Below the pieces are notes generated by a model that saw only the letters and a program-made list of their open reading frames with translations, was not told the origin of the DNA and did not search any database. From an uncultured Methanosarcinaceae archaeon (GTDB taxonomy: Archaea > Halobacteriota > Methanosarcinia > Methanosarcinales > Methanosarcinaceae), in NCBI GenBank assembly GCA_963847185.1, contig CAWJYV010000010.1, forward strand, positions 480,001-544,000: DNA of 64,000 nt, read 5' to 3'. Positions 10,754-43,314 of this stretch are shown in pieces. Within the stretch, counting starts at the first letter, position 1. The number at the start of each line of letters is the position of its first letter. The position numbers and the translations under genes are program-made.

Positions 10754-11305
10754 ATGATCCCAAGAAAAGCATTTTTGACAAAGGGTACCGGGGTACACAA
10801 GGATAGATTAGCATCATTTGAACTTGCACTAAGAGCTGCGAGAATAGAGAAATACAACCTTGTAAGTGTTTCAAGTATTTTACCCCCCAATTGTAAACTC
10901 GTACCCAAAGAAGAAGGACTCATGGAGCTGAAGCCTGGTGCCATTGTCCATTGTGTACTCGCCAGGAATGATACAAACGAACCTCATCGTTTGATGGCTT
11001 CAGCTATAGGAACCGCTGTTCCTGTAAATGAAGAGAACTATGGCTACATTTCTGAACACCACTCTTTCGGAGAAGAAGAAATTATTGCAGGAGAATATGC
11101 CGAGGACCTGGCAGCAACTATGCTTGCAACGACTCTGGGCATAGAGTTTGATGCTGAAATGGCCTGGCATGAGAGAGAGCAGGTATACAAAGCAAGCGGG
11201 CATATTTTTGACAGTTTCCACATCTGTCAGACTGCAAAAGGAGACAAAGACGGTAGATGGACCACTGTTGTAGCTGCTATGGTCTTTGTAACAAAGCCAG
11301 ATTAA
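10754..11305 (+). CDS. pdaD: pyruvoyl-dependent arginine decarboxylase
   Basis: SFELALRAARIEKYNLVSVSSILPP with the Ser-Ser autocleavage site; YGYISEHH; WTTVVAA. Confidence 0.93.
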   Translation: MIPRKAFLTKGTGVHKDRLASFELALRAARIEKYNLVSVSSILPPNCKLVPKEEGLMELKPGAIVHCVLARNDTNEPHRLMASAIGTAVPVNEENYGYISEHHSFGEEEIIAGEYAEDLAATMLATTLGIEFDAEMAWHEREQVYKASGHIFDSFHICQTAKGDKDGRWTTVVAAMVFVTKPD

Positions 11306-11410
11306 TAATGAATAACGAAAAATGTAAAAATTGGATTTATGGTAAATTTAGAGCAATAGATTAAAAATAATGAAAAGAACTGTTTTTAAATTGAAATCAG
11401 GGGAAGAAAA

Positions 11411-12388
11411 TTAGAGCTTCCCCCTCCTCATTGAGATGTAAGGCTGGAAGAATCTGTTCCAGACATCCCGAAAGTATTCTTTTGAATTATTTGGCCACGT
11501 GGGAGTACTGTAGCCGACTATTACAGCTCCTGCAAGAATGAAGATGCAACCTTCTATTGTATTTGACTGGAGAGGTTCTCCAAGAAGCAAACAGCAGAGG
11601 AAGATGCTGCTTACTGGCTCAAGAAGAGAGATAACAGCTGCGGTCTGTGCCTTTATACGCGCTACTCCTCTAAGATACAGAAGCGAGGCAAAAGCAGTTG
11701 CAATAACACCTAAAGGTATGAGAATATTCAGGTTTTCAAGCAGTACTGGCCCGGATACCGAAATCCCGAAAGGCAGGAGAAGAACGAGGCTTACTGATGT
11801 TGACCAGAACATCTGTTCTACGGCTGAATAAAGTTCCTTAAGGTAATTAACTACCATGATCGAACAGCCATACGAAAGCCCCGAAAGTAGCCCAAAAAGA
11901 AGTCCTGTGGAATAACCTCCATTCCCTCCTGAAAAAATAATCTCCATAATATTAGAAGGGCTTACTGCAAGAAGTATACCTGAAACAGAAAGAGTAAGTG
12001 CAAGCATATCTCGAAGGGTTACATGTTCTTTCAAAAGGAAAGGAGAAAAAAAAGTCACATATATAGGGGCTGTGTACATGAGAAGTACGGAGACAGAGAT
12101 GCCAATGTTTTTGATTGCGGAAAAATAAGCAAGCATTGTTATTGTATTTAGAACGCCAAGTAAAAGTACGTAATACTTTTTTTGATTAAGTTTAATATCT
12201 TTAATTCCTTTAAATATTACGAAATACCCCAGAATCACTGCAAAACCGAAGTAAAGCCGGTAAAATAAGATAGAACCTGCCCCCATATCCTTAATTTCCC
12301 TTACAAAAATCCCTATCATCCCGAAGAGGATGCATGAGGCAGTGACTGCAGTAATTGGGTTACTATTTTCTTTTAAGTTTTGAGGCAT
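11411..12388 (-). CDS. EamA/DMT family transporter
   Basis: About 10 TM segments; SVLLMYTAPIYV and AVISLLEPVSS duplicated EamA motifs. Confidence 0.9.
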   Translation of the reverse strand: MPQNLKENSNPITAVTASCILFGMIGIFVREIKDMGAGSILFYRLYFGFAVILGYFVIFKGIKDIKLNQKKYYVLLLGVLNTITMLAYFSAIKNIGISVSVLLMYTAPIYVTFFSPFLLKEHVTLRDMLALTLSVSGILLAVSPSNIMEIIFSGGNGGYSTGLLFGLLSGLSYGCSIMVVNYLKELYSAVEQMFWSTSVSLVLLLPFGISVSGPVLLENLNILIPLGVIATAFASLLYLRGVARIKAQTAAVISLLEPVSSIFLCCLLLGEPLQSNTIEGCIFILAGAVIVGYSTPTWPNNSKEYFRDVWNRFFQPYISMRRGKL

Positions 12389-12567
12389 ACTTGAAGAATG
12401 AATAATCGGGACAGAATATAAAACTATCTAAAATAATTTACAAGATATTTTATACAAAAATTAATATTTAATTTTTAAAAAGTTCTTTATAATGGAAACA
12501 ATTTATGTAAAGATTAAGCTCTACATTTTTCTATGTCGGTGGACTCGAAATTGCTTCAATTACTTAA

Positions 12568-14787
12568 TCAATTTGCGGGCGAATCAATTAACTGAACTTT
12601 TTGAATTGCTATACTCAACTCCCTTGTATCATTACTTTTTATCTCCTGAGAGTCACTTTGTTTTTCTGTGCCTTCAGGTACATGGAAAAGAATGGTATTT
12701 TTTCCCTGTTTTAAGGTGATTGGAATATTTACTGGGCTTAAACTGGTGTTGATAATTTGTTTACTCTGAAGAGTTTTACCATTATAAACCTCCAGTGTTT
12801 TTGGAGAATGGAAGCTGCATGCCTCGAATTTTAATGCTACATCTTCAGTACCACCTGAATAAATCAATATTGTAGCATTATTTGAAATCCTTCTTGCTGT
12901 TGTGCCATTCAAATTCTCCCTATTATTCCATCCATTACCTAAAAGCATAAAGGGACGAACTGTCTGGTCTGGAACACGATAAACAATGAGTCCGTCTTCG
13001 GCATATATTTCCGGTTCAGTTTTAAGTGTCTTTTTCAATAAATCATTCACAAAATCTAACTGAGTACTTGATAACTGATTTTTGTGGATAACAACATACC
13101 TTATATTATTGGCATTTAGAACTGAAGCACCTATATCAGTAACATCTTCTTGTAAAATATCTTTATTTTGTAGAGAATAGTATTTTAATTCTCTAATAAG
13201 TGGGGTTTCTTTTTGAAAATTGTTGACATTAGCTGGATATCTCGCTGCATATCCACCGACAAGAGGTTTATTATGGACTGTTTGATAGTACAAATACTGA
13301 AACTCCATATATCCTGCATTAGCGCTTTGCGGAATTTCAAGCAACGCATAGTTATCAGTATCATTACCAATTTTAGAGTAAAAATCAGGAACATTTACCG
13401 GTGCAGTTGGGTATGGAATACACATGTATTCAAAAATTATCAGAAGACCAACTATTGCAAAGATGAGTTTTTTTCTTTCTGGCTTATACTTAAGTAATTC
13501 CGACAAACCATATCCTGCAAGGACGGAGTAGCCAAGTGCTGCAATAACAAAAAACCTGCCAACTGTCCTGCAATTTTTCAGGAAGGGAACTGTATTGTAT
13601 AGTAGCTGATATGGAAGTGGTATTTTCAGATTTAAGTCAGTGAAGGAATACACTCCATTAAAATGTAATATGGGTCCCAAACTAATTATTGTAAAGAAAA
13701 ATGTAGATACTAACCAGAACTTTATGTCAGGATTTTTCCTTGATTTCAGGAATGAAAGGGCTGAAAGTCCCAGAACGATGTATCCGATAAAGTTTACTTT
13801 TTCAGCAAACCAGCTTGGTATGTTTGAATATAAATCCAGTGTAAATTGGCCAAATAACGGATGCAAATGAGAAGGGAGGAAAAAGCTCATCAAATCATTT
13901 GATAATTTCGGAATCTCGTTAGCACTTGGTTTTAAGAAGTTTTGATTTGAAAGGGCAATAAGTATTTCGTTGATGGTTAAAGGTAATACTCCGAGAAAAG
14001 TGACCCCGCCAAAGAAAAAATATTTTTTAACTATTTCTTTTACAGAATAAGTAAAGTTTTTCTCGGAACTGAGAGTCATGTAAAAGTCATATAAAAATAC
14101 TAATCCTGTAAAGATTCCCATAAAAATCAGATACTGCAGGTCGCTCATAGCTACCAGAATAAAAAATATTCCTGCAAGGATCGGATTTTTTATTCCTCCC
14201 TCTTTAACTGTTTTCATAAGAAACAGAGCACAAAAGGGGATCCACTGAACTGTTCCTGCTCCGAAAAAGTATAGTCCTCTGGAAAAGTGGTATGGTGAAA
14301 ATGCAAATATAATTCCTGCAATGAAGGCAGCATATTTATTATCCGTAAGATATTTTACCAGCAAATACGAACCGATAGCTCCTATTATGAAAGTTAAGAG
14401 CCATAATATCGTGTATATGACATGCAGTTCTAAAAAGGGAGACAGCAGTACGTAAGAGATTTGATTAAATGCGGATGGAAACGGCATTGACTCTATTCCA
14501 TTCGGATAAAAAAGTAGATGATCATGTGTAAAAGCTGCTAAATCTGCTTCCTGTATTGCTGTTTTTGTGTACCATAAGATTCTCATCCATTGATATGAAT
14601 CCGCACCCATTCCGGGAATACTTGTTTTTATCTTGAATAAGACAGGATAAGTAAGAATAGCCGTCAAAAAAGTATATAATATGCTCACTAAAGAATATTC
14701 CTGTAGACTGCTAAAATGCTTATCTATAAAACTTCGGTTTTTTTCTATGTTAGCCGTTTTTTTTATTTTCACGAAGTTGTCTCCCAA
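12568..14787 (-). CDS. multi-TM GT-C-like glycosyltransferase (YfhO-like) with C-terminal extracellular domain
   Basis: Early loop ADSYQ; AGIIFAFSPYH; RTVGRF; YQTVHNKPLVGGY; part of a GT2/flippase cassette. Confidence 0.7.
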   Translation of the reverse strand: MGDNFVKIKKTANIEKNRSFIDKHFSSLQEYSLVSILYTFLTAILTYPVLFKIKTSIPGMGADSYQWMRILWYTKTAIQEADLAAFTHDHLLFYPNGIESMPFPSAFNQISYVLLSPFLELHVIYTILWLLTFIIGAIGSYLLVKYLTDNKYAAFIAGIIFAFSPYHFSRGLYFFGAGTVQWIPFCALFLMKTVKEGGIKNPILAGIFFILVAMSDLQYLIFMGIFTGLVFLYDFYMTLSSEKNFTYSVKEIVKKYFFFGGVTFLGVLPLTINEILIALSNQNFLKPSANEIPKLSNDLMSFFLPSHLHPLFGQFTLDLYSNIPSWFAEKVNFIGYIVLGLSALSFLKSRKNPDIKFWLVSTFFFTIISLGPILHFNGVYSFTDLNLKIPLPYQLLYNTVPFLKNCRTVGRFFVIAALGYSVLAGYGLSELLKYKPERKKLIFAIVGLLIIFEYMCIPYPTAPVNVPDFYSKIGNDTDNYALLEIPQSANAGYMEFQYLYYQTVHNKPLVGGYAARYPANVNNFQKETPLIRELKYYSLQNKDILQEDVTDIGASVLNANNIRYVVIHKNQLSSTQLDFVNDLLKKTLKTEPEIYAEDGLIVYRVPDQTVRPFMLLGNGWNNRENLNGTTARRISNNATILIYSGGTEDVALKFEACSFHSPKTLEVYNGKTLQSKQIINTSLSPVNIPITLKQGKNTILFHVPEGTEKQSDSQEIKSNDTRELSIAIQKVQLIDSPAN

Positions 14788-31921: not shown

Positions 31922-32738
31922 GTACCTCCGTTATTACTGTACATTGTTATTTTTGCCTTGCAGGCCATTCACCTGCTGACAGTCTTGAATTGTGCTGGCT
32001 TAAATATAAGCTTACTTTCCTAAATAAAGAAGCTAAATCAATTAGATTTCAAAAATAAACTTTTTTCACGATTTATTGTGATAATAAACCTTAAATAAGA
32101 CAATTAATGCTTATTAGAACCATTAAATCCCATATTTTAAAACAGAAGAGACGTGTCCATTTATTATCGCAGAATCTCAGGATGAGGCAACTTAAAATTC
32201 AGCAAGCTATATTTAATATTTTAATATATTTATTAAGTTTCGTTAAGGTACTACTTAAACTCCCTCAGAGTGGCTTTTAAATTACTAAAGATATTCCAAG
32301 TCCTTACATAGTCTCCAAAATTCTTTCAATTCAAGACAATCGAAAGTAAGTAAAAGACATCTAAAGTTAATAAAAATTAGTTAATAAAAAGTTGAAACTG
32401 AGACACTAGTTCCCGGTATGTGATTTTAGAGGAGAACAGGATGTTAAAAATAAGAATTTAAGGGTCATAAAGGATTAAATCTGGAAAAAATCCCTATTAA
32501 AGCATGAATAAGAAATTTAATCCTTCTATCCAACTGAAAAAGTAAGTATACTTTTATCTTTAAATTCCGATACAGAATCTTCAGTCAGGAATACATTGCT
32601 AGTCCATCCACCAAAATAAAACTTTAAACAGTGCGGTCTCGTACCGTAATATGTAAAGACAGCAATAGATAGTAAAAATATTGAAGAAATCGCATCATAC
32701 AAAGGCCTGCATATCAGTTCGATGTATTCCTGACTATC

Positions 32739-32847
32739 TTCATCTCTAGAATTCAGCTATAGAATTCATCTTTAGAGTTCAGCTATAGAATTCATCTTTA
32801 GAGTTCAGCTATAGAATTCATTTTTAGAGTTCAGCTATAGAATTCAG
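32739..32847. repeat. 26-bp tandem repeat x4 (a dimer of related 13-mers)
   Basis: TTCATCTTTAGAGTTCAGCTATAGAA at 32739, 32765, 32791 and 32817; no spacers. Confidence 0.92.
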
Positions 32848-32910
32848 TTTAAGAGATATGAAATACATATCTAAAAGTACAAATATCTAAAAATTATGAA
32901 AGGGATAAAA

Positions 32911-36051: not shown

Positions 36052-36330
36052 TTAGAGAACTTCACACTCTTTCATTTCCTCATCTTTTTTGAAGAAGTTC
36101 TTTGTGGTACATACTATCCATCTCCAGTGAAGTGCGATGTGGATAATAAAGAAGACCACCATAAGGAGTCCAACCTTATCATGAATCAATCTCAATAAGT
36201 AGCCTGCAGCACGGTGGTTGAAATACATTACAAGACCCGAATAACCAACCAGGATAAATTGAATGAAAAGTGCCAGGTCTACGAGATAGTTCAGTTTTAT
36301 TCTTTTCATTTTTTCACTCCATTTTAACAT
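36052..36330 (-). CDS. DUF4405-like small two-TM protein with His residues (cytochrome b-like)
   Basis: LNYLVDLALF...YSGL; IHDKVGLL...HIALHWRW. Confidence 0.8.
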   Translation of the reverse strand: MLKWSEKMKRIKLNYLVDLALFIQFILVGYSGLVMYFNHRAAGYLLRLIHDKVGLLMVVFFIIHIALHWRWIVCTTKNFFKKDEEMKECEVL

Positions 36331-36953: not shown

Positions 36954-37235
36954 TTAATCCACAGGCATATAGTTCGCTTCTATAACTTCACCCTTTTTCA
37001 TTTCTCTTCCGCCTCTGAGGAGGTTCTTTGTAGTATATACCATCCATCTCCAGTGGAGTACAACATGAGCAACAAAGAAGACCAACATCAAGATCCCAAG
37101 CTGCTCATGGATTAACTTCCAGAATTGGGATACACCGTGACCATTGAAAAGCAATAAAATACCTGAATAACCAACCAGGGCGAATTGAACGAAGAGCGCA
37201 AGGTCAACAAAATAGTTGAGTTTTAATTTATTCAT
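36954..37235 (-). CDS. DUF4405-like small two-TM protein, paralog of 36052-36330
   Basis: LKLNYFVDLALFVQFALVGYSG; IHEQLG...HVVLHWRW. Confidence 0.8.
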   Translation of the reverse strand: MNKLKLNYFVDLALFVQFALVGYSGILLLFNGHGVSQFWKLIHEQLGILMLVFFVAHVVLHWRWMVYTTKNLLRGGREMKKGEVIEANYMPVD

Positions 37236-37557
37236 TTCTTCACTCCATTGTAACTTTTACATCTTGTAGAATCATTATTTCAGTTAAGTTTTGAATTGTA
37301 TTTGATTGATTTTTACTTCATAAGCCATTACCGTCGCGGCTATGCTGCTTTCAAATTTACCGCCGTACATGCCCTTAATTGCCAGAAAAAGAGATAAATA
37401 TGCTTACAAAAAATAATGGGTTAAAGAGATTTATTTTAAATTTAAGGACATATTAAAGCATATTTAGAAATATAATCTTTTATTACAGGATTTAACACTT
37501 AACCTGCTTATTTTTAACCTTTATTTGGCCAAGTACTAACAAAATCGTAGTTTGTAG

Positions 37558-37680
37558 CGTGATTTCCAGAAAAGATCTGCACAGCAGGCCGGAGCGCTCC
37601 AGGGAGAAGAAATTTAGTGCCTATAGACCTTGTAGAAAAAGAAAGCTAAAAAAGAAGTTTAAAAGTGATGCGGAAATGTG
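37558..37680 (+). pseudogene. third, more decayed copy of the wHTH-coding tail
   Basis: gatttccagaaaagatctgcacagcaggc and agaagtttaa...ggaaatgt align with 35714-35835. Confidence 0.45.
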
Positions 37681-38459
37681 TCGTCACCTGATTCTCCACT
37701 GAAGGCTGAGATTTCCTTTCCGTATTAAGATCCAAACATCAAGCGCGTTGTCATCTGAAGATGAAAAGGTAATAATTTCCATCAGAAGTGATAAAAGCAA
37801 AATGGACCGAACTGAAATGACCATCTAAAGTGTACAACGGTGATCCACGAGGATGTATCAAAATAGCGTTTAAAGGCAGAATTTTCATACACTTTTGCAC
37901 GTATATGTTTCAACATTAATTGAATTTCAGTTTCAGAAAAATAATCATGTGACGATAGATATAGTAAAGGGGTCAGTAAAGAAGGACATATAGAGAGCCT
38001 TGGAACGTGAATTAGAAAATGGATTTATGAGTCGGAAAACTGCGGACTTTATACAGGATTGCGCCAGACTATTTTTCTTACTTCCTCATTCCTATTAAAC
38101 TTTTACAAATAAATCGTGATAAGTAATTCCAGCTTATAAGTATCTCCTGCTGTTTTTGTTATGAGTTCTGGAAAAAAATCTTGCCCCTTAAGTCAAGTTG
38201 ATTACTGAAACTGGACTGAAAGGCTAAAAAATAATATATTAATCCCGGTTTTGTCGATAAAAGAGGCTCTTAATGGAAGTCTGGATGACGTTTTGAAGAA
38301 ACTCTTGGGGAAATAATACTTTATTGAGACCCTATTTGCTGTTTAAAGGGTGATTAAAGAGTAAATTGTATAAATAAAATCTGGAAAAGTTTCCCTGCTA
38401 AATTAATTCCATATATTCCCTGTTTTTAGCTAAGTATGCTTTTATTATTAAATACCAAT

Positions 38460-38815
38460 GAAAGGGTTGACTGCCTCAAGTACCTTTTGAGCAACTGGCA
38501 GAACAGATGCCCCGTTCTGAAGGGTGCCAATTGGCAGATTACAATGGAAAAGGAACATCTGATTATGGAACCTAGCCACAAAACAGGAACCTCGCCATCA
38601 GAAAGATCAGAAGCCTTCACTAATAATCAGGTGTTCGCCATTGTAAAAAAAGGAAGCAGTCAACCAAAAAAACCTACACTCCAGAAAATGAGGCACTACA
38701 CACCTTGTTGGTGCCTCAAACCCATCTAAACCACACAGGTCTAATTGGACCGTAAAAGGTCTGATTAGGCCTAATTATACCCGGAAAGTCAGTTCAGATA
38801 CGACTAACTTTTTAG
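38460..38815 (+). ncRNA. candidate structured ncRNA or long structured 5' leader of the ABC operon
   Basis: Nested helices 38465-74/38656-65 (10 bp perfect), 38475-80/38486-91, 38492-500/38525-33, 38539-47/38638-46 (9 bp perfect) and 38553-66/38623-36 (14 bp, 1 GU); hairpins 38689-96/38711-18, 38737-51/38758-72 (15 bp, 3 GU) and 38785-93/38803-11; TATA-like TTTTATTA near 38440. Confidence 0.65.
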
Positions 38816-38836
38816 AGGCTACTTTAGAGGCTATGT

Positions 38837-39772
38837 ATGACACTCACTGAAATTATAGATACATTTAAAACGAAGCTGAATCCCTCAAAAATTATGAACT
38901 CGCTCGAAAAAGCAGCGAGTTTCTCAGAGGAATCAGAGAATGATGTAGGGGGGAATAATTCAGGGGAAGATCTGAAAAATAATCCATACAGTAATTCAGG
39001 AAGTGACTCTGCTAAAAATTCTAACGTATTAAGGATCTCTCAAAACAATGAGGACCCTCTAATTAAACTTACCAATGTATGGAAAATTTACCAGATGGGA
39101 GAAGTTGAATTTGCAGCCCTTAAGGGAATAAACCTGGAAATCTACGAGGGGGAATTTCTGGTTGTTCTCGGGCCTAGCGGAAGTGGGAAAAGTACGCTTA
39201 TGAACTTGCTGGGCTGCCTGGATATCCCATCAAAAGGCACTGTTAGCCTGAACTCAAAGGATATTTCAGAACTTGACGAATCGGAACTGGCCATTATAAG
39301 AGGACAGATGATTGGCTTCATATTCCAGAGCTTCAACCTCATTCCCACTCTCAGTACGGAAGAAAACGTACTTTTACCTATGGAATTCCAGGAAGAGGAT
39401 AGACAAATAGCCCGAAAAAAAGCAGCGTACCTGCTTGAGATTGTCGGACTTTCAAACAAGAAAAATAACCTTCCTTCTCAGCTCTCAGGCGGACAGAAGC
39501 AAAGAGTTGCAATAGCCCGCTCCCTGGCTGTGAACCCACCCATTATTCTTGCAGATGAACCTACAGGAAACCTGGACACCAAGACTGGTAACTATATCCT
39601 GGAATTCCTCGATGGTTTGCACGAAAGAGAAGGAAAGACCATCATCATTGTAACGCATGACCTTGAACTTGTAAAGTATGCAACAAGAGTTGTGTATATC
39701 AGGGACGGCGAAATTGAAAAAATAGAGAAAATGGACGAAAAACCGAAAAACAGTAAAAACGAACAAAAATGA
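38837..39772 (+). CDS. ABC transporter ATP-binding protein (LolD/MacB/SalX type)
   Basis: [42 protein letters not shown] and VTHD motifs. Confidence 0.95.
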
Positions 39773-39786
39773 TCTGAGGAATTAAA

Positions 39787-41139
39787 ATGAAAAAATTATC
39801 TTTATTATCACTTTTAATGCTGCTTACAGTATTCATAACCCTTGGAGCCGGAACAGCTCTCGGCTCGTCAAATGGGAACATAAATTCTGCATCTGTACAG
39901 GTAAATCTAACCAATCAGAATCCTGATTACGCTCGTCCCGGAGAACCTGTTGAACTCACTGTCAGTGTTCAAAATGTAGGAAATGCTGACTTAAAAGACA
40001 TAGCAATAACAGTTAATTCGGAATATCCTTTCACTAAGGTTTCCGGAGAAAATCTTGTAAAAGAAGTTTCTTATCTGAATGCAAGACAGGACGACGATGA
40101 TGCAGCGGTCCTTAAATTCAGGCTCATGACAGATGCAAACGCATCTGCAGGGACCTATGACATAGATATCACAACTACTGCAAAAGAAAGTGGAGATTCA
40201 TCAAATACAATTACCACTACAAAAACGATCCAGCTTGAGGTAAAGGGCAAAGAATACGCTCAGGTCGTGACTATAAGCAAAGCGAATATTGATATTGCAA
40301 AAGAAGAGCCTCTGGAGTTTATCATAACGAATACCGGAACTTCCCCTATCAAAAATATGGTAATCTCCTGGAAAGATCCAAAAGGTGTAATTTTACCTGT
40401 TTACTCTGACAACACAAAGTACATCAAATATCTGGAAGCCGGAGACTCCGCGACCGTATCTTACTCTGTCATGGCAGATGTAAATGCAGACCCTGGCTTA
40501 TACACTCTAAATGTGGATCTCAGTTATGAAGACTATGAATCCAATGAACAAAGTATCAATACCACAGCAGGAATATTTGTTGGTGGAGAGACTGATTTTG
40601 ATGTCTCCTTTTCAGAAAGTGACGCTGGAGAAATATCTCTTTCCGTTGCAAATGTGGGTAACAACATTGCATACTCAGTGAAAGTATCGGTTCCTGATCA
40701 GGACGGGTACAGGGTATCAGGAAGCTCGTCAACAATTGTAGGAAATCTCGAGAAAGGAGACTATACAATCGCTTCCTTTGACGTCACAAGCACGCAGAGT
40801 GCTGGAGGAGCTGAAGGAGAAAGTCCAGGAGAAAATATACTCTCTGCTTCGACGGAATCCGATCCTCTAAAGGTCCAGATCGAGTATACGGATGCAAAAG
40901 GAGAAAGAATTACCGTTGATAAGGAAGTAGAACTCGAAATGACTTCCGGAAATATGACTGCGGCAGGAGGTCAGGCAGGCCCAGGTAGCAGCGCCGGTAT
41001 GGGTTCATATATATCCTACATTGTAGTACTCGCCCTTGCAGGTGGGATATTCGTTTACCGGAAGAAAATTCAGGAAAAAATCCGGGAAAGGAAAGATAAA
41101 AAGTCCGGATCCAAAAAGCCTGAAGACCAGAAGGTCTGA
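39787..41139 (+). CDS. COG1361 S-layer-family / Ig-like domain protein with C-terminal TM anchor
   Basis: Signal peptide; NQNPD.A.PGEPVELTVSVQNVG and VANVGNNIAYSV Ig-like repeats; TM followed by a basic tail. Confidence 0.85.
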   Translation: MKKLSLLSLLMLLTVFITLGAGTALGSSNGNINSASVQVNLTNQNPDYARPGEPVELTVSVQNVGNADLKDIAITVNSEYPFTKVSGENLVKEVSYLNARQDDDDAAVLKFRLMTDANASAGTYDIDITTTAKESGDSSNTITTTKTIQLEVKGKEYAQVVTISKANIDIAKEEPLEFIITNTGTSPIKNMVISWKDPKGVILPVYSDNTKYIKYLEAGDSATVSYSVMADVNADPGLYTLNVDLSYEDYESNEQSINTTAGIFVGGETDFDVSFSESDAGEISLSVANVGNNIAYSVKVSVPDQDGYRVSGSSSTIVGNLEKGDYTIASFDVTSTQSAGGAEGESPGENILSASTESDPLKVQIEYTDAKGERITVDKEVELEMTSGNMTAAGGQAGPGSSAGMGSYISYIVVLALAGGIFVYRKKIQEKIRERKDKKSGSKKPEDQKV

Positions 41140-41175
41140 GAAGAGCAGCATCAATAGATAACGGAAGGATGCAGG

Positions 41176-42420
41176 ATGAGAAACTCAACCTACCTGAAAA
41201 TGGGCCTGAACATGCTTGTTCACAGCAAGCTGCGAAGCTGGCTGACCATTATCGGGATAGTCATAGGAATCGGATCTGTTGTCGGCATCCTCTCCCTCGG
41301 GGATGCCATGCAGGAACAGGTGCAGAGCAGACTCGCCGAGATGGATCTGACAAAAATTACCATAAGCCCCGGATACACAAAAGCATCGTCAAACATGCAT
41401 GGACCTGGTGGAATGGGAGGAGGAGGTACGACAACAGATGTCGAATTAACAGAAGATGATATTGAGGCACTTCAAGGCATAGATGGCATACAGTACATGG
41501 CCGGTGAAATTTCCGGCAGTGAACCGGTAATTTATGCAGCACAGAATGCGACCCTCTCAATAACGGGTGTGGACCCCCAGGTCTGGAAGTATATGACTAC
41601 ACTGGAGACGCAGTCAGGAAGGCTACTTGAGCCGTCTGACAAGTATGTAGCAGTCATAGGGAGCGGTGTTGCCAGCGGAGTTTTTGATCAGGATATAGGA
41701 GTCAACCAGGTAATAACCATAAACGGCAAAGCAGTGCGTGTTGTCGGCATCCTTGCAGAAGAAGGTGAGGGTGGAGACAGAAGCATTTACATGCCAATAG
41801 ATGGAGCAGTAAACCTCCTTGACGATGCAGAAGAGGATGTTTACGATACTATCACGGTAAAAGCCAAGAGTGAAGATCTGGTGGACAGTGTGATGGAAGA
41901 TATAGTAGACAAGCTCATGGTTTCAAGACATATTATTCAGGAAGAAGACAGGGACTTTTCAGTGACAGCCTCAAAGTCTATGGCTGAGTCCGTTACCGAG
42001 ATGACGAGTTCGATGACTCTCTTCCTTGGAGCTATTGCAGCCGTATCCCTGCTTGTAGGAGCCGTGGGTATTGCAAACACCATGTTTACTTCTGTCCTGG
42101 AGAAGACAAAGGAAATAGGGACTATGAAAGCCATTGGAGCTAAAAACAGGGATATTCTCATGATTTTCCTCTTTAACTCCGCAATGGTAGGTCTTGTTGG
42201 TGGGATCCTTGGAGATTTGCTGGGAGCCTGTGTTTCAACTCTCTTCCCTCTGCTAGGTTTGCAAATGATGGGAGGAGGAAGTGATTCAAGCATATATTTT
42301 GCTCCGGACCTGATGGCTTTAGGGCTCATCCTGGCAGTTATAATAGGTATTGCCTCAGGAGTGGTTCCTGCATACAGGGCTTCGAAATTGAAACCAGTAG
42401 ATGCATTGAGGTACGAATAA
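41176..42420 (+). CDS. ABC transporter permease (FtsX/MacB type)
   Basis: KLRSWLTIIGIVIG; VGAVGIANTMFTSVLEKTKEIGTMKAIGA; PAYRASKLKPVDALRYE. Confidence 0.95.
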   Translation: MRNSTYLKMGLNMLVHSKLRSWLTIIGIVIGIGSVVGILSLGDAMQEQVQSRLAEMDLTKITISPGYTKASSNMHGPGGMGGGGTTTDVELTEDDIEALQGIDGIQYMAGEISGSEPVIYAAQNATLSITGVDPQVWKYMTTLETQSGRLLEPSDKYVAVIGSGVASGVFDQDIGVNQVITINGKAVRVVGILAEEGEGGDRSIYMPIDGAVNLLDDAEEDVYDTITVKAKSEDLVDSVMEDIVDKLMVSRHIIQEEDRDFSVTASKSMAESVTEMTSSMTLFLGAIAAVSLLVGAVGIANTMFTSVLEKTKEIGTMKAIGAKNRDILMIFLFNSAMVGLVGGILGDLLGACVSTLFPLLGLQMMGGGSDSSIYFAPDLMALGLILAVIIGIASGVVPAYRASKLKPVDALRYE

Positions 42421-42489: not shown

Positions 42490-43314
42490 ATGAATTTGAT
42501 TGATATTGCAGTTCTTTCCGAAAGAAGGCGAGATATACTTTTACTTATTGAAGAAAAACCAAGAAGCTTTGAAGAAATCAGAGACTTGCTTGGCCTCAGT
42601 TCCGCTTCTATAAGAATTCATTTAAAAAAACTTGTTAATTCCAGGTTCCTTGTAAAAGAAAAGGGAAAGTATGGGTTATCAGAAATGGCAGCACCCATAA
42701 TAAAAAATTTGAAGGAATTGCTGGACTCATTAACTTTCTTTGAGAAAAATATAGATTATTGGACGAGTCATAGTTTGGTTCCAATACCCACTTTTTTAAG
42801 AAAAAGACTTGGAGAACTTGGTAACCTAGAATTTATTGAACGTGATAATGCACATATGTTTGAAATTCCGGGAATAATTTTGGAAAATATAAGGAAATCA
42901 AAAGAAGTCTTTATTTTTTTCTCCTGCCTGCATCCGGAAATTTCCAATATATATACAGAACTTTCAGAAAGAGAGTTAAAAATCTCGTTATGTGTGACAG
43001 GACCTATAATTGAAAGATTATTCAGAGATAGTCCCATTGAAATAAGAAAGCTGCTGGAAGTAGAAAATTCAAAGTTATTTTACTGCCCCAGAATTGTGAA
43101 TTTACCAGTACTTGTAGTGACAGACAGGTTTATGGCAATTGAATTTTTCCGCAACGACGGAAGTCTGAGCAATCAGGTAATTGTAAACTCAGATAAAGAA
43201 GCTCTAAAATGGGGAAAAGAACTTTACAATTATTTTGAAGAATGTTCTGAGTCTCTAACCTTGAAACTGGGAAATCAAAACTCATTGAGCTATAAACAGG
43301 TAAATTCAGCATGA
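42490..43314 (+). CDS. winged-HTH regulator with DUF1724/FilR1-like C-terminal domain
   Basis: SERRRDILLLI..PRSFEEI..HLKKL; IPTFLRKRLGELG; LVVTDRF; ALKWGKELYNY. Confidence 0.85.
   Translation: MNLIDIAVLSERRRDILLLIEEKPRSFEEIRDLLGLSSASIRIHLKKLVNSRFLVKEKGKYGLSEMAAPIIKNLKELLDSLTFFEKNIDYWTSHSLVPIPTFLRKRLGELGNLEFIERDNAHMFEIPGIILENIRKSKEVFIFFSCLHPEISNIYTELSERELKISLCVTGPIIERLFRDSPIEIRKLLEVENSKLFYCPRIVNLPVLVVTDRFMAIEFFRNDGSLSNQVIVNSDKEALKWGKELYNYFEECSESLTLKLGNQNSLSYKQVNSA

Follow-up and report, generated by a model that had tools for sequence, protein, structure and literature searches.

The locus analysed here raises the question of whether a large structured RNA, encoded directly ahead of an ABC transporter operon, acts as the regulatory leader of this operon or represents an RNA gene in its own right. 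It is located in a window of 64,000 nt (the window being the whole stretch of DNA that was analysed) from an uncultured Methanosarcinaceae archaeon. The original prediction, made from the sequence alone, had described a densely structured plus-strand element and had proposed that it controls the downstream MacB/COG1361/FtsX operon. The element is a genuine new RNA family, structured on the plus strand, approximately 250-350 bases long and linked to Methanosarcina.

Upon folding with RNAfold, the plus strand of region 38460-38836 reached a minimum free energy of -116.3 kcal/mol, while 100 dinucleotide-shuffled versions reached -85.3 +/- 6.0 kcal/mol. None of these shuffles folded as well, and the z-score of -5.21 is far better than the controls. 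Reading of the window and a repeat finder agree on the closing helix P1, a stem of 10 bp formed by GGTTGACTGC (38465-74) and GCAGTCAACC (38656-65), which the repeat finder extended to 13 nt (92%). The 5′ strand of P1 (38465-38477, plus strand) contains the conserved core GACUGC (38469-74) followed by CUC, while the 3′ strand GGAAGCAGUCAACC (38652-38665) is supported by the repeat finder and by an alignment of 40 copies. P1 encloses the P2 region with two or three small hairpins (38479-38536, from RNAfold and the paired cells of the 40-copy alignment) and a long arm (38539-38646), which consists of P3, P3b and an inner region and is again backed by the repeat finder and the 40-copy alignment. 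P3 is formed by TTACAATGG/CCATTGTAA (38539-47/38638-46) and P3b, with a length of 14 nt, by GAACATCTGATTAT/ATAATCAGGTGTTC (38553-66/38623-36); both were found by window reading and repeat finder. The inner part of the arm carries the loop motif ACCUCGCCA (38589-97), which is conserved in relatives.

Downstream of P1 there is an A/C-rich single-stranded linker (38666-38688) with CCUACACUCCAGAA at 38673-86, followed by hairpin P4, UGAGGCAC...GUGCCUCA (38689-38718), which is found in a MAFFT alignment and in the 40-copy alignment. The next hairpin, P5 (38737-38772, from the window and a MAFFT alignment of 22 copies), has a stem of 15 bp (38737-51/38758-72) in which each of the three non-Watson-Crick positions is a G-U pair on the plus strand. 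The closing helix, both helices of the long arm and the 15-bp stem thus occur exactly where the original prediction had placed them. Its first arm stood only in part: the repeats CTCAAG/TTTGAG and CAACTGGCA/TGCCAATTG lie in their proposed place, but the minimum free energy structure pairs this region differently and it is comparatively the weakest part of the element. CCUC motifs are exposed at 38474-77, 38590-93 and 38712-15. According to the repeat finder and inspection by eye, the 5′ segment UGCCUCA (38472-78) could also pair with the 5′ strand of P4, UGAGGCA, both being near-invariant. A bulge-helix-bulge motif is absent from P1 upon inspection by eye, as the 10-bp helix is continuous and has no 3-nt bulges.

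Related DNA was detected by BLAST in 19 of the 24 other genomes of the genus that were compared. All model searches were performed with a covariance model, R1, built from three close sequences. R1 has matches in 28 of the 34 Methanosarcina genomes and in 2 of the 6 from its sister genus, and no match in 110 genomes from 14 other genera of the family or in 87 genomes from five other families of the order. As R1 derives from three close sequences, absence from these genomes means not found with R1, and distant copies may be missed. With filters switched off, weak and diverged versions also turned up in G146, a further member of the genus, and in two more genomes of the sister genus. Ten stretches came up when named genomes were scanned for an exact pattern; nine of them are titled Methanosarcina, Methanosarcinaceae or Methanosarcinales, while the title of the tenth names a metagenome assembly only. 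Carrier genomes have one or two copies, and the 4.04-Mb genome from which the window is taken has a single one. Compensatory changes are seen among the copies.

The comparative evidence for the fold rests mainly on a covariance-model alignment of 40 copies, and its figures have to be read in the light of the fact that such an alignment is fitted to the model and that related sequences share inherited changes. Standard pairs occupy 86.2% of 2001 cells in this alignment. Shuffling of columns lowers this value to 75.5%, and sliding the 3′ partner by 1-3 columns lowers it to 36.9-42.0%. Changes on both sides occur in 50 of 64 pairs, and none of 500 shuffles attains any of five measures. An earlier set of 19 copies had given similar values (87.9% paired, 43 of 64 pairs changed on both sides). 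The individual helices are paired in 92.8% (P1), 93.9% (P3, with all 7 pairs changed on both sides), 88.6% (P3b, 12 of 14 pairs) and 88.8% (P4) of the cells in the 40 copies. The least supported part is the P2 region with 73-80% for the pairing of the model; P2 is deleted, absent or replaced in several relatives.

For P1 some caution is required. The model alignment shifted its register in 6 of the 40 rows, so the counts of compensatory changes in this helix are inflated. The closing helix is present as 10 bp in the window, but only its inner six pairs (GACUGC/GCAGUC), together with a CUC/GGA extension, are conserved among relatives, while the outer pairs GGUU/AACC are gapped or unpaired in many of them. 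A MAFFT alignment of 19 loci, made without regard to structure, was passed to RNAalifold, which retained P4 and the P1 core GACUGC/GCAGUC, with changes on both sides in 6 of 15 pairs. The unfitted MAFFT alignment of 22 copies shows P5 with 13 pairs and many alternations between G-U, G-C and A-U; in one clade, a different hairpin occurs at this place. Homologues fold better than their shuffles in 16 of 16 cases (z from -2.29 to -6.70), and for 15 of the 16 none of 40 shuffles was as good. Folded singly, they share a common plan: P1 and a first arm that varies are followed by a long arm in two parts, an A-rich linker, P4 and one more hairpin. G-U occurs in 98 cells and A-C in 43, and this excess points to an RNA of the plus strand; a minus-strand RNA is also disfavoured by its z-score for the same region (-3.24 as compared to -5.21).

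Two species (G107 and G144) carry a 103-nt version which consists of P1 as a simple hairpin, the linker and P4. They lack the whole multibranch interior while promoter and operon are retained, and the interior is thus inessential. A similar small form occurs in the sister genus. The interior covaries where it is present and contains the conserved loop motif described above. The linker motif is the most conserved sequence of the RNA, being kept in the 103-nt forms and diverged in the sister genus. Because the minimal forms keep these parts without the interior, the invariant core consists of the promoter block TAAGTATGCTTTTATTATTAAAT, P1 (GACUGCC...GGAGCAGUC), the linker AAAAAACCUACACUCCAGAA and P4 (GAGGCAC/GUGCCUC).

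In the A/C-rich spacer after P4, differing short tandem repeats are found in five copies (L033, L031, L044, L050 and L058), for example ATTAAACCAC in four units in L033 and GATAAACCACCAATTCAC in L058. Two further copies, L040 and L041, have a duplicated P4.

The family has no counterpart in Rfam. In the whole window there is no Rfam 15 match at gathering thresholds. In lenient mode, the best score for 38300-38900 was 19.2 bits, compared to gathering scores of 39-105, and all E-values were at least 0.55. A search with 12 homologous loci returned one chance match elsewhere and none on the element. This agrees with the original prediction, which had not recognised a tRNA, SRP RNA, RNase P RNA or known riboswitch in the element. 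No description was found in the full-text literature either, which agrees with the proposal of an undescribed archaeal RNA. According to PMC5867862, Jager et al. 2009 listed 199 candidate intergenic sRNAs for M. mazei, and an unnamed entry among these could correspond to the element.

Evidence for transcription comes from four metatranscriptomes of four studies, being those runs on record as RNA that had the largest shares among 18 listed; the small word shares of the other 14 runs do not enter into the evidence. Each of the four runs yielded a single short contig (156-196 nt) on 38480-38677, which aligns from end to end with 1-3 differences. Zero depth was seen over 38200-38478, which covers the promoter, and over 38727-39100, which covers P5 and the start of the ATPase gene. 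As contamination by DNA would also cover the flanks, the signal represents RNA, and this RNA is far more abundant in the libraries than the message of the ABC genes. One run additionally contained a 324-nt contig of a diverged homologue with a depth of 383, which extends 156 nt beyond the linker. Contigs reveal neither strand nor transcript ends. Their termini (approximately 38480 and 38672-77) are not taken as ends of the RNA because they fall on blocks common to several species, at which assembly graphs branch. Joints that would reflect back-joined reads of a circular RNA were absent from the contigs of the four runs, contigs being weak evidence in this respect. Covariation in 40 copies, the G-U excess and these RNA contigs together support the claim that selection acts on an RNA and not on a DNA palindrome.

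Upstream of the RNA, conservation is even higher. The 150 bp upstream of 38465 are better conserved than the interior of the RNA. A near-invariant block, TAAGTATGCTTTTATTATTAAAT (38431-38453, plus strand), is found in 19 of 19 loci and includes the TATA-like sequence TTTTATTATTAAAT at 38440-53, which confirms the TATA-like box that had been seen ahead of the element. From the archaeal TATA-to-start spacing, we infer a transcription start at about 38469-75; the unconserved outer pairs of P1 fit such a start. Further upstream, the plus strand of 38315-38430 carries three blocks of columns conserved across 19 loci, AATACTTTAT (38315-24), TTAAAGAGTAAAT (38354-66) and GAAAAGTTTCCCTG (38384-97). From their conservation, these are probably transcription-factor sites, and the promoter that drives the RNA is probably factor-controlled. 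A gene for a transcription regulator with HTH_5 and FilR1_middle domains (Pfam) is located at 42490-43314 on the plus strand, and this FilR1-type regulator may be a candidate for binding the conserved promoter blocks.

A paralogous copy of the promoter architecture occurs in the same window at 32444-32593 and, within the genus, is conserved in 26 of 36 genomes, among them G000. In region 32444-32900, TAAGTATACTTTTATCTTTAAAT is found at 32543, and the boxes ahead of it are similar as well. Next comes a long-range helix of 16 bp (approximately 32583-98/32720-35) around ~120 nt, with an overall fold z-score of only -1.6, and then four tandem repeats of ~31 nt (TTTAGAGTTCAGCTATAGAATTCATC), an HTH_20 gene and two more ORFs. 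Conservation in this region is confined to the promoter part and does not include the transcribed part; in many genomes, the promoter part is found 4-5 kb ahead of the RNA. The ORF-poor stretch between the two conserved promoters holds two small paralogous DUF4405 (cytochrome-b-like) genes on the minus strand (36052-36330 and 36954-37235), and the ~1.2 kb upstream of the element (37236-38425) is devoid of ORFs of at least 50 aa on either strand.

Downstream of the RNA, the ABC operon spans 38837-42420 on the plus strand. It codes for a MacB/LolD-type ABC ATPase with a conserved N-terminal extension of ~70 aa (38837-39772), a NEW3/CARDB-domain protein (39787-41139) and a MacB_PCD+FtsX permease (41176-42420). 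The ATPase gene is found downstream on the same strand in 29 of 30 fetched loci, and in 38 of 41 R1 matches the operon follows the RNA at the expected distance and in the same orientation. The remaining three are two orphan copies, which lack a downstream ABC gene, and a copy on contig C7 of G017 (10789-12719), which abuts a NEW3/CARDB gene with internal stops: the RNA is ~320 nt from this gene, which has two internal TAA codons. There is no room for the ATPase gene, and this locus looks like a decaying operon copy. Other irregularities were noticed in NEW3/CARDB homologues. In six-frame matches, those from genus g20 (G094, G142, G134, G128, G101) and from G099 (g14) contain one in-frame TGA each; its recurrence in several genomes possibly reflects recoding or a conserved split.

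Between RNA and operon, the window has a gap of only 65 nt from P5 to the ATG, with no T-run before 38809. A conserved module precedes the start codon (38784-38836, plus strand), composed of a weak hairpin AGUU/AACU (38792-95/38806-09), a U5 tract (38809-13; U4-5 among relatives) and the Shine-Dalgarno sequence. The AGAGG of the latter is duplicated in the window, TTTAGAGGCTA occurring at 38811-21 and 38823-33, and this 12-nt tandem duplication is peculiar to this genome among 22 aligned loci, in all of which TTTTAGAGG is invariant. RNAalifold found no consensus pairs in this module, the Shine-Dalgarno sequence included, across the 22 loci. The Shine-Dalgarno sequence has a predicted unpaired probability below 0.35 in 22 of 30 leaders, a figure which comes without a control and to which different partners contribute in different loci. 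A mini-ORF ahead of the Shine-Dalgarno sequence (AUG ACU AAC UUU UAG) was considered and rejected, as it is in frame in some clades only and the window has ACG in place of its start codon. A scan for bacterial-type terminators and promoters found none, but such a scan does not apply to archaea.

We consider a cis-acting leader of the ABC operon to be the most likely reading of the element, with a probability of about 0.5. The linkage in 38 of 41 matches argues for it, as does the conserved module of U-tract and Shine-Dalgarno sequence ahead of the ATG, and the short gap after P5 leaves no room for a separate unit in this genome. The linkage behind the proposed riboregulatory control of the MacB/COG1361/FtsX operon is strong, but other observations count against such control. 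The orphan copies remain structured without an operon, and the interior has been deleted in two species. A paralogous operon lacks the RNA: a second operon in the same genome (contig C8, 956700-959132), with an ATPase 89.6% identical, has a spacer of ~120 nt in which no such RNA was found, and its homology to the window starts only at the Shine-Dalgarno sequence. (The NEW3/CARDB gene of this paralogous operon has one internal TAA in a six-frame match.) The operon was found in 98 of 151 genomes and in 11 of 16 genera, which is far wider than the distribution of the RNA. Neither a conserved helix that would hide the ribosome-binding site nor a bacterial-type terminator was found. In most relatives, P5 and the start codon are separated by a further 200-330 bases which are AT-rich and poorly conserved, and this stretch could contain a separate promoter. 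Finally, neither transcript ends nor strand can be read from the contigs.

If the RNA is a leader, transcription would begin near 38469-75, at the conserved GACUGCC, and the leader would fold during synthesis. Most transcripts would then end or be cut ahead of the coding region, leaving a stable leader RNA; the best candidate for the end site is the weak hairpin with its U4-5 tract beside the Shine-Dalgarno sequence (38792-38813). A signal, which might be a protein, an ion or a metabolite, would be bound by the core of P1, linker and P4 together with the ACCUCGCCA loop of the long arm, and the bound signal would set read-through into, or translation of, the ATPase gene. The leader RNA may also act in trans.

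The reading that comes next, and which we hold only tentatively, is that of an independent gene for a stable trans-acting small RNA of ~250-450 nt which is sited upstream of the operon. The linker motif and/or the CCUC motifs would then pair with ribosome-binding sites or bind a protein, while the hairpins would stabilise the molecule. The two orphans, L007 (G012) and L045 (G178), fit this well, as they have kept their own promoter, P1, P3, P3b, P4 and P5 without an operon. Their helices are largely intact (P1 11/11 and P3b 13/14 in L007, P4 11/12 in L045) and their folds have z-scores of -3.2 and -4.5. However, the orphans are also the longest terminal branches (0.40 and 0.46, compared to a median of 0.073), and this may reflect relaxed constraint. 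The linker is the best conserved part of the RNA and is present even in the minimal versions, and stable hairpins split by a G-poor linker are also a feature of M. mazei sRNA162 as described (PMC3510493). RNA contigs were found on the element and none on the ABC gene, and the close paralogous operon works without the RNA. Against a separate gene stand the 38 of 41 copies which are co-oriented with and adjacent to the ATPase gene, and the fact that, in the window, the gap from P5 to the ATG has no T-rich terminator. Complements of the linker occur at 33 genome sites with up to 2 mismatches, but none of eight inspected sites lies convincingly at a start codon.

A bolder proposal, which we regard as rather improbable, places the element in a new class of large archaeal sensor or ribonucleoprotein RNAs. 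The core of P1, linker and P4 and the ACCUCGCCA loop of the long arm would bind a metabolite, a metal or a dedicated protein and would gate the MacB-type exporter through controlled termination or processing at the U-tract beside the Shine-Dalgarno sequence, with the released leader also serving as an abundant RNA that acts in trans.

It is very unlikely that conservation acts at the DNA level only, through overlapping factor sites or palindromes of a complex promoter whose folds are incidental. The upstream 150 bp do outrank the RNA interior in conservation and the architecture recurs at the second promoter. Both strands of P1 are near-invariant, which is also the reason why P1 offers few independent compensatory events. 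However, P3, P3b, P4 and P5 vary in sequence and yet remain paired, G-U cells outnumber A-C cells, and the RNA contigs map to the element and not to the promoter DNA.

Still less credible are a protein-coding region or a multicopy mobile element: a 97-aa ORF (38436-38729, plus strand) and a 64-aa ORF (38426-38620, minus strand) do exist in the window, but the 97-aa frame ranges from 8 to 106 codons from the same ATG over 19 loci, is already broken in a 95%-identical relative and begins inside the invariant block of the promoter, ahead of the inferred transcription start, while tblastn with both ORFs gave only short, weak, frame-split matches and neither has a Pfam match, and a MITE or dispersed repeat does not fit an element which is present once in its own genome and once or twice in each relative, without any change of context.

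Few structured regulatory RNAs backed by sequence comparison are known from archaea, methanogens included. The element described here combines covariation in 40 copies with a defined promoter, a gene partner and a high abundance of its RNA in environmental samples. Natural variants are available in the form of the 103-nt versions, the orphans and the RNA-free paralogous operon, and as Methanosarcina is genetically tractable, both the distinction between action in cis and in trans and the nature of the signal are open to direct test. If the RNA senses a ligand, it would provide a pointer to the substrate of a widespread archaeal family of MacB/FtsX exporters, and as a sensor it would be among very few riboswitch-like regulators native to methanogens.

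Several known systems resemble the element in part. Among those described, the small RNAs sRNA162/171 of M. mazei come nearest; they are restricted to Methanosarcina, have a length of ~190 nt and form several conserved stem-loops with compensatory changes (PMC3510493). In the same source, sRNA162 is described as having a single-stranded linker between hairpins, as being processed into stable fragments and as being located near a gene for an ArsR-type regulator, between MM2441 and MM2442, divergent from MM2442 and antisense to its leader (PMC3510493). As far as this description goes, genus restriction, covarying stem-loops, a single-stranded linker and a nearby ArsR-type regulator gene are shared with our element. 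Compared by description only, the linker is the most variable part of sRNA162 whereas it is the most conserved part of the present RNA, which also differs from the published account in being co-oriented with an ABC ATPase gene and in being closed by a long-range helix. The genomic place differs as well, since the upstream neighbours of our element are the small DUF4405 genes on the opposite strand.

OLE-type RNAs are large, abundant, lineage-restricted non-coding RNAs which are encoded beside genes for membrane proteins. The ornate fold, narrow range, high abundance and linkage to a membrane-protein gene are common to OLE and the present element, but the latter is shorter and has no similarity in sequence or model, Rfam including OLE without a match being found.

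Bacterial riboswitch and attenuator leaders typically consist of a P1-closed domain, a linker and a hairpin, with a U-tract by the ribosome-binding site, and the leader outnumbers the coding region. The arrangement ahead of our exporter operon is similar, with a P1-closed domain, linker, hairpin and a U-tract near the ribosome-binding site, and a covariation-supported fold is found in leader position, upstream of the ATPase gene in 38 of 41 matches. However, an aptamer core common to all members is missing, as the would-be aptamer interior has been deleted in two species and P2 is variable. Other differences from bacterial riboswitches are the lack of an Rfam match and that no covarying alternative pairing was found. 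Termination-type riboswitches are barely documented in archaea.

The mRNA leaders of the genus offer a further parallel. The cdh operon of Methanosarcina has a long regulatory 5′ leader. On average, 5′ leaders of Methanosarcina mRNAs have ~150 nt according to PMC3510493. Like such leaders, the element is an untranslated RNA of several hundred bases that lies close to the promoter and precedes an operon. It differs from them by having a covariation-supported fold of its own, by occurring once or twice in a carrier genome and by being found, in some cases, free of the operon.
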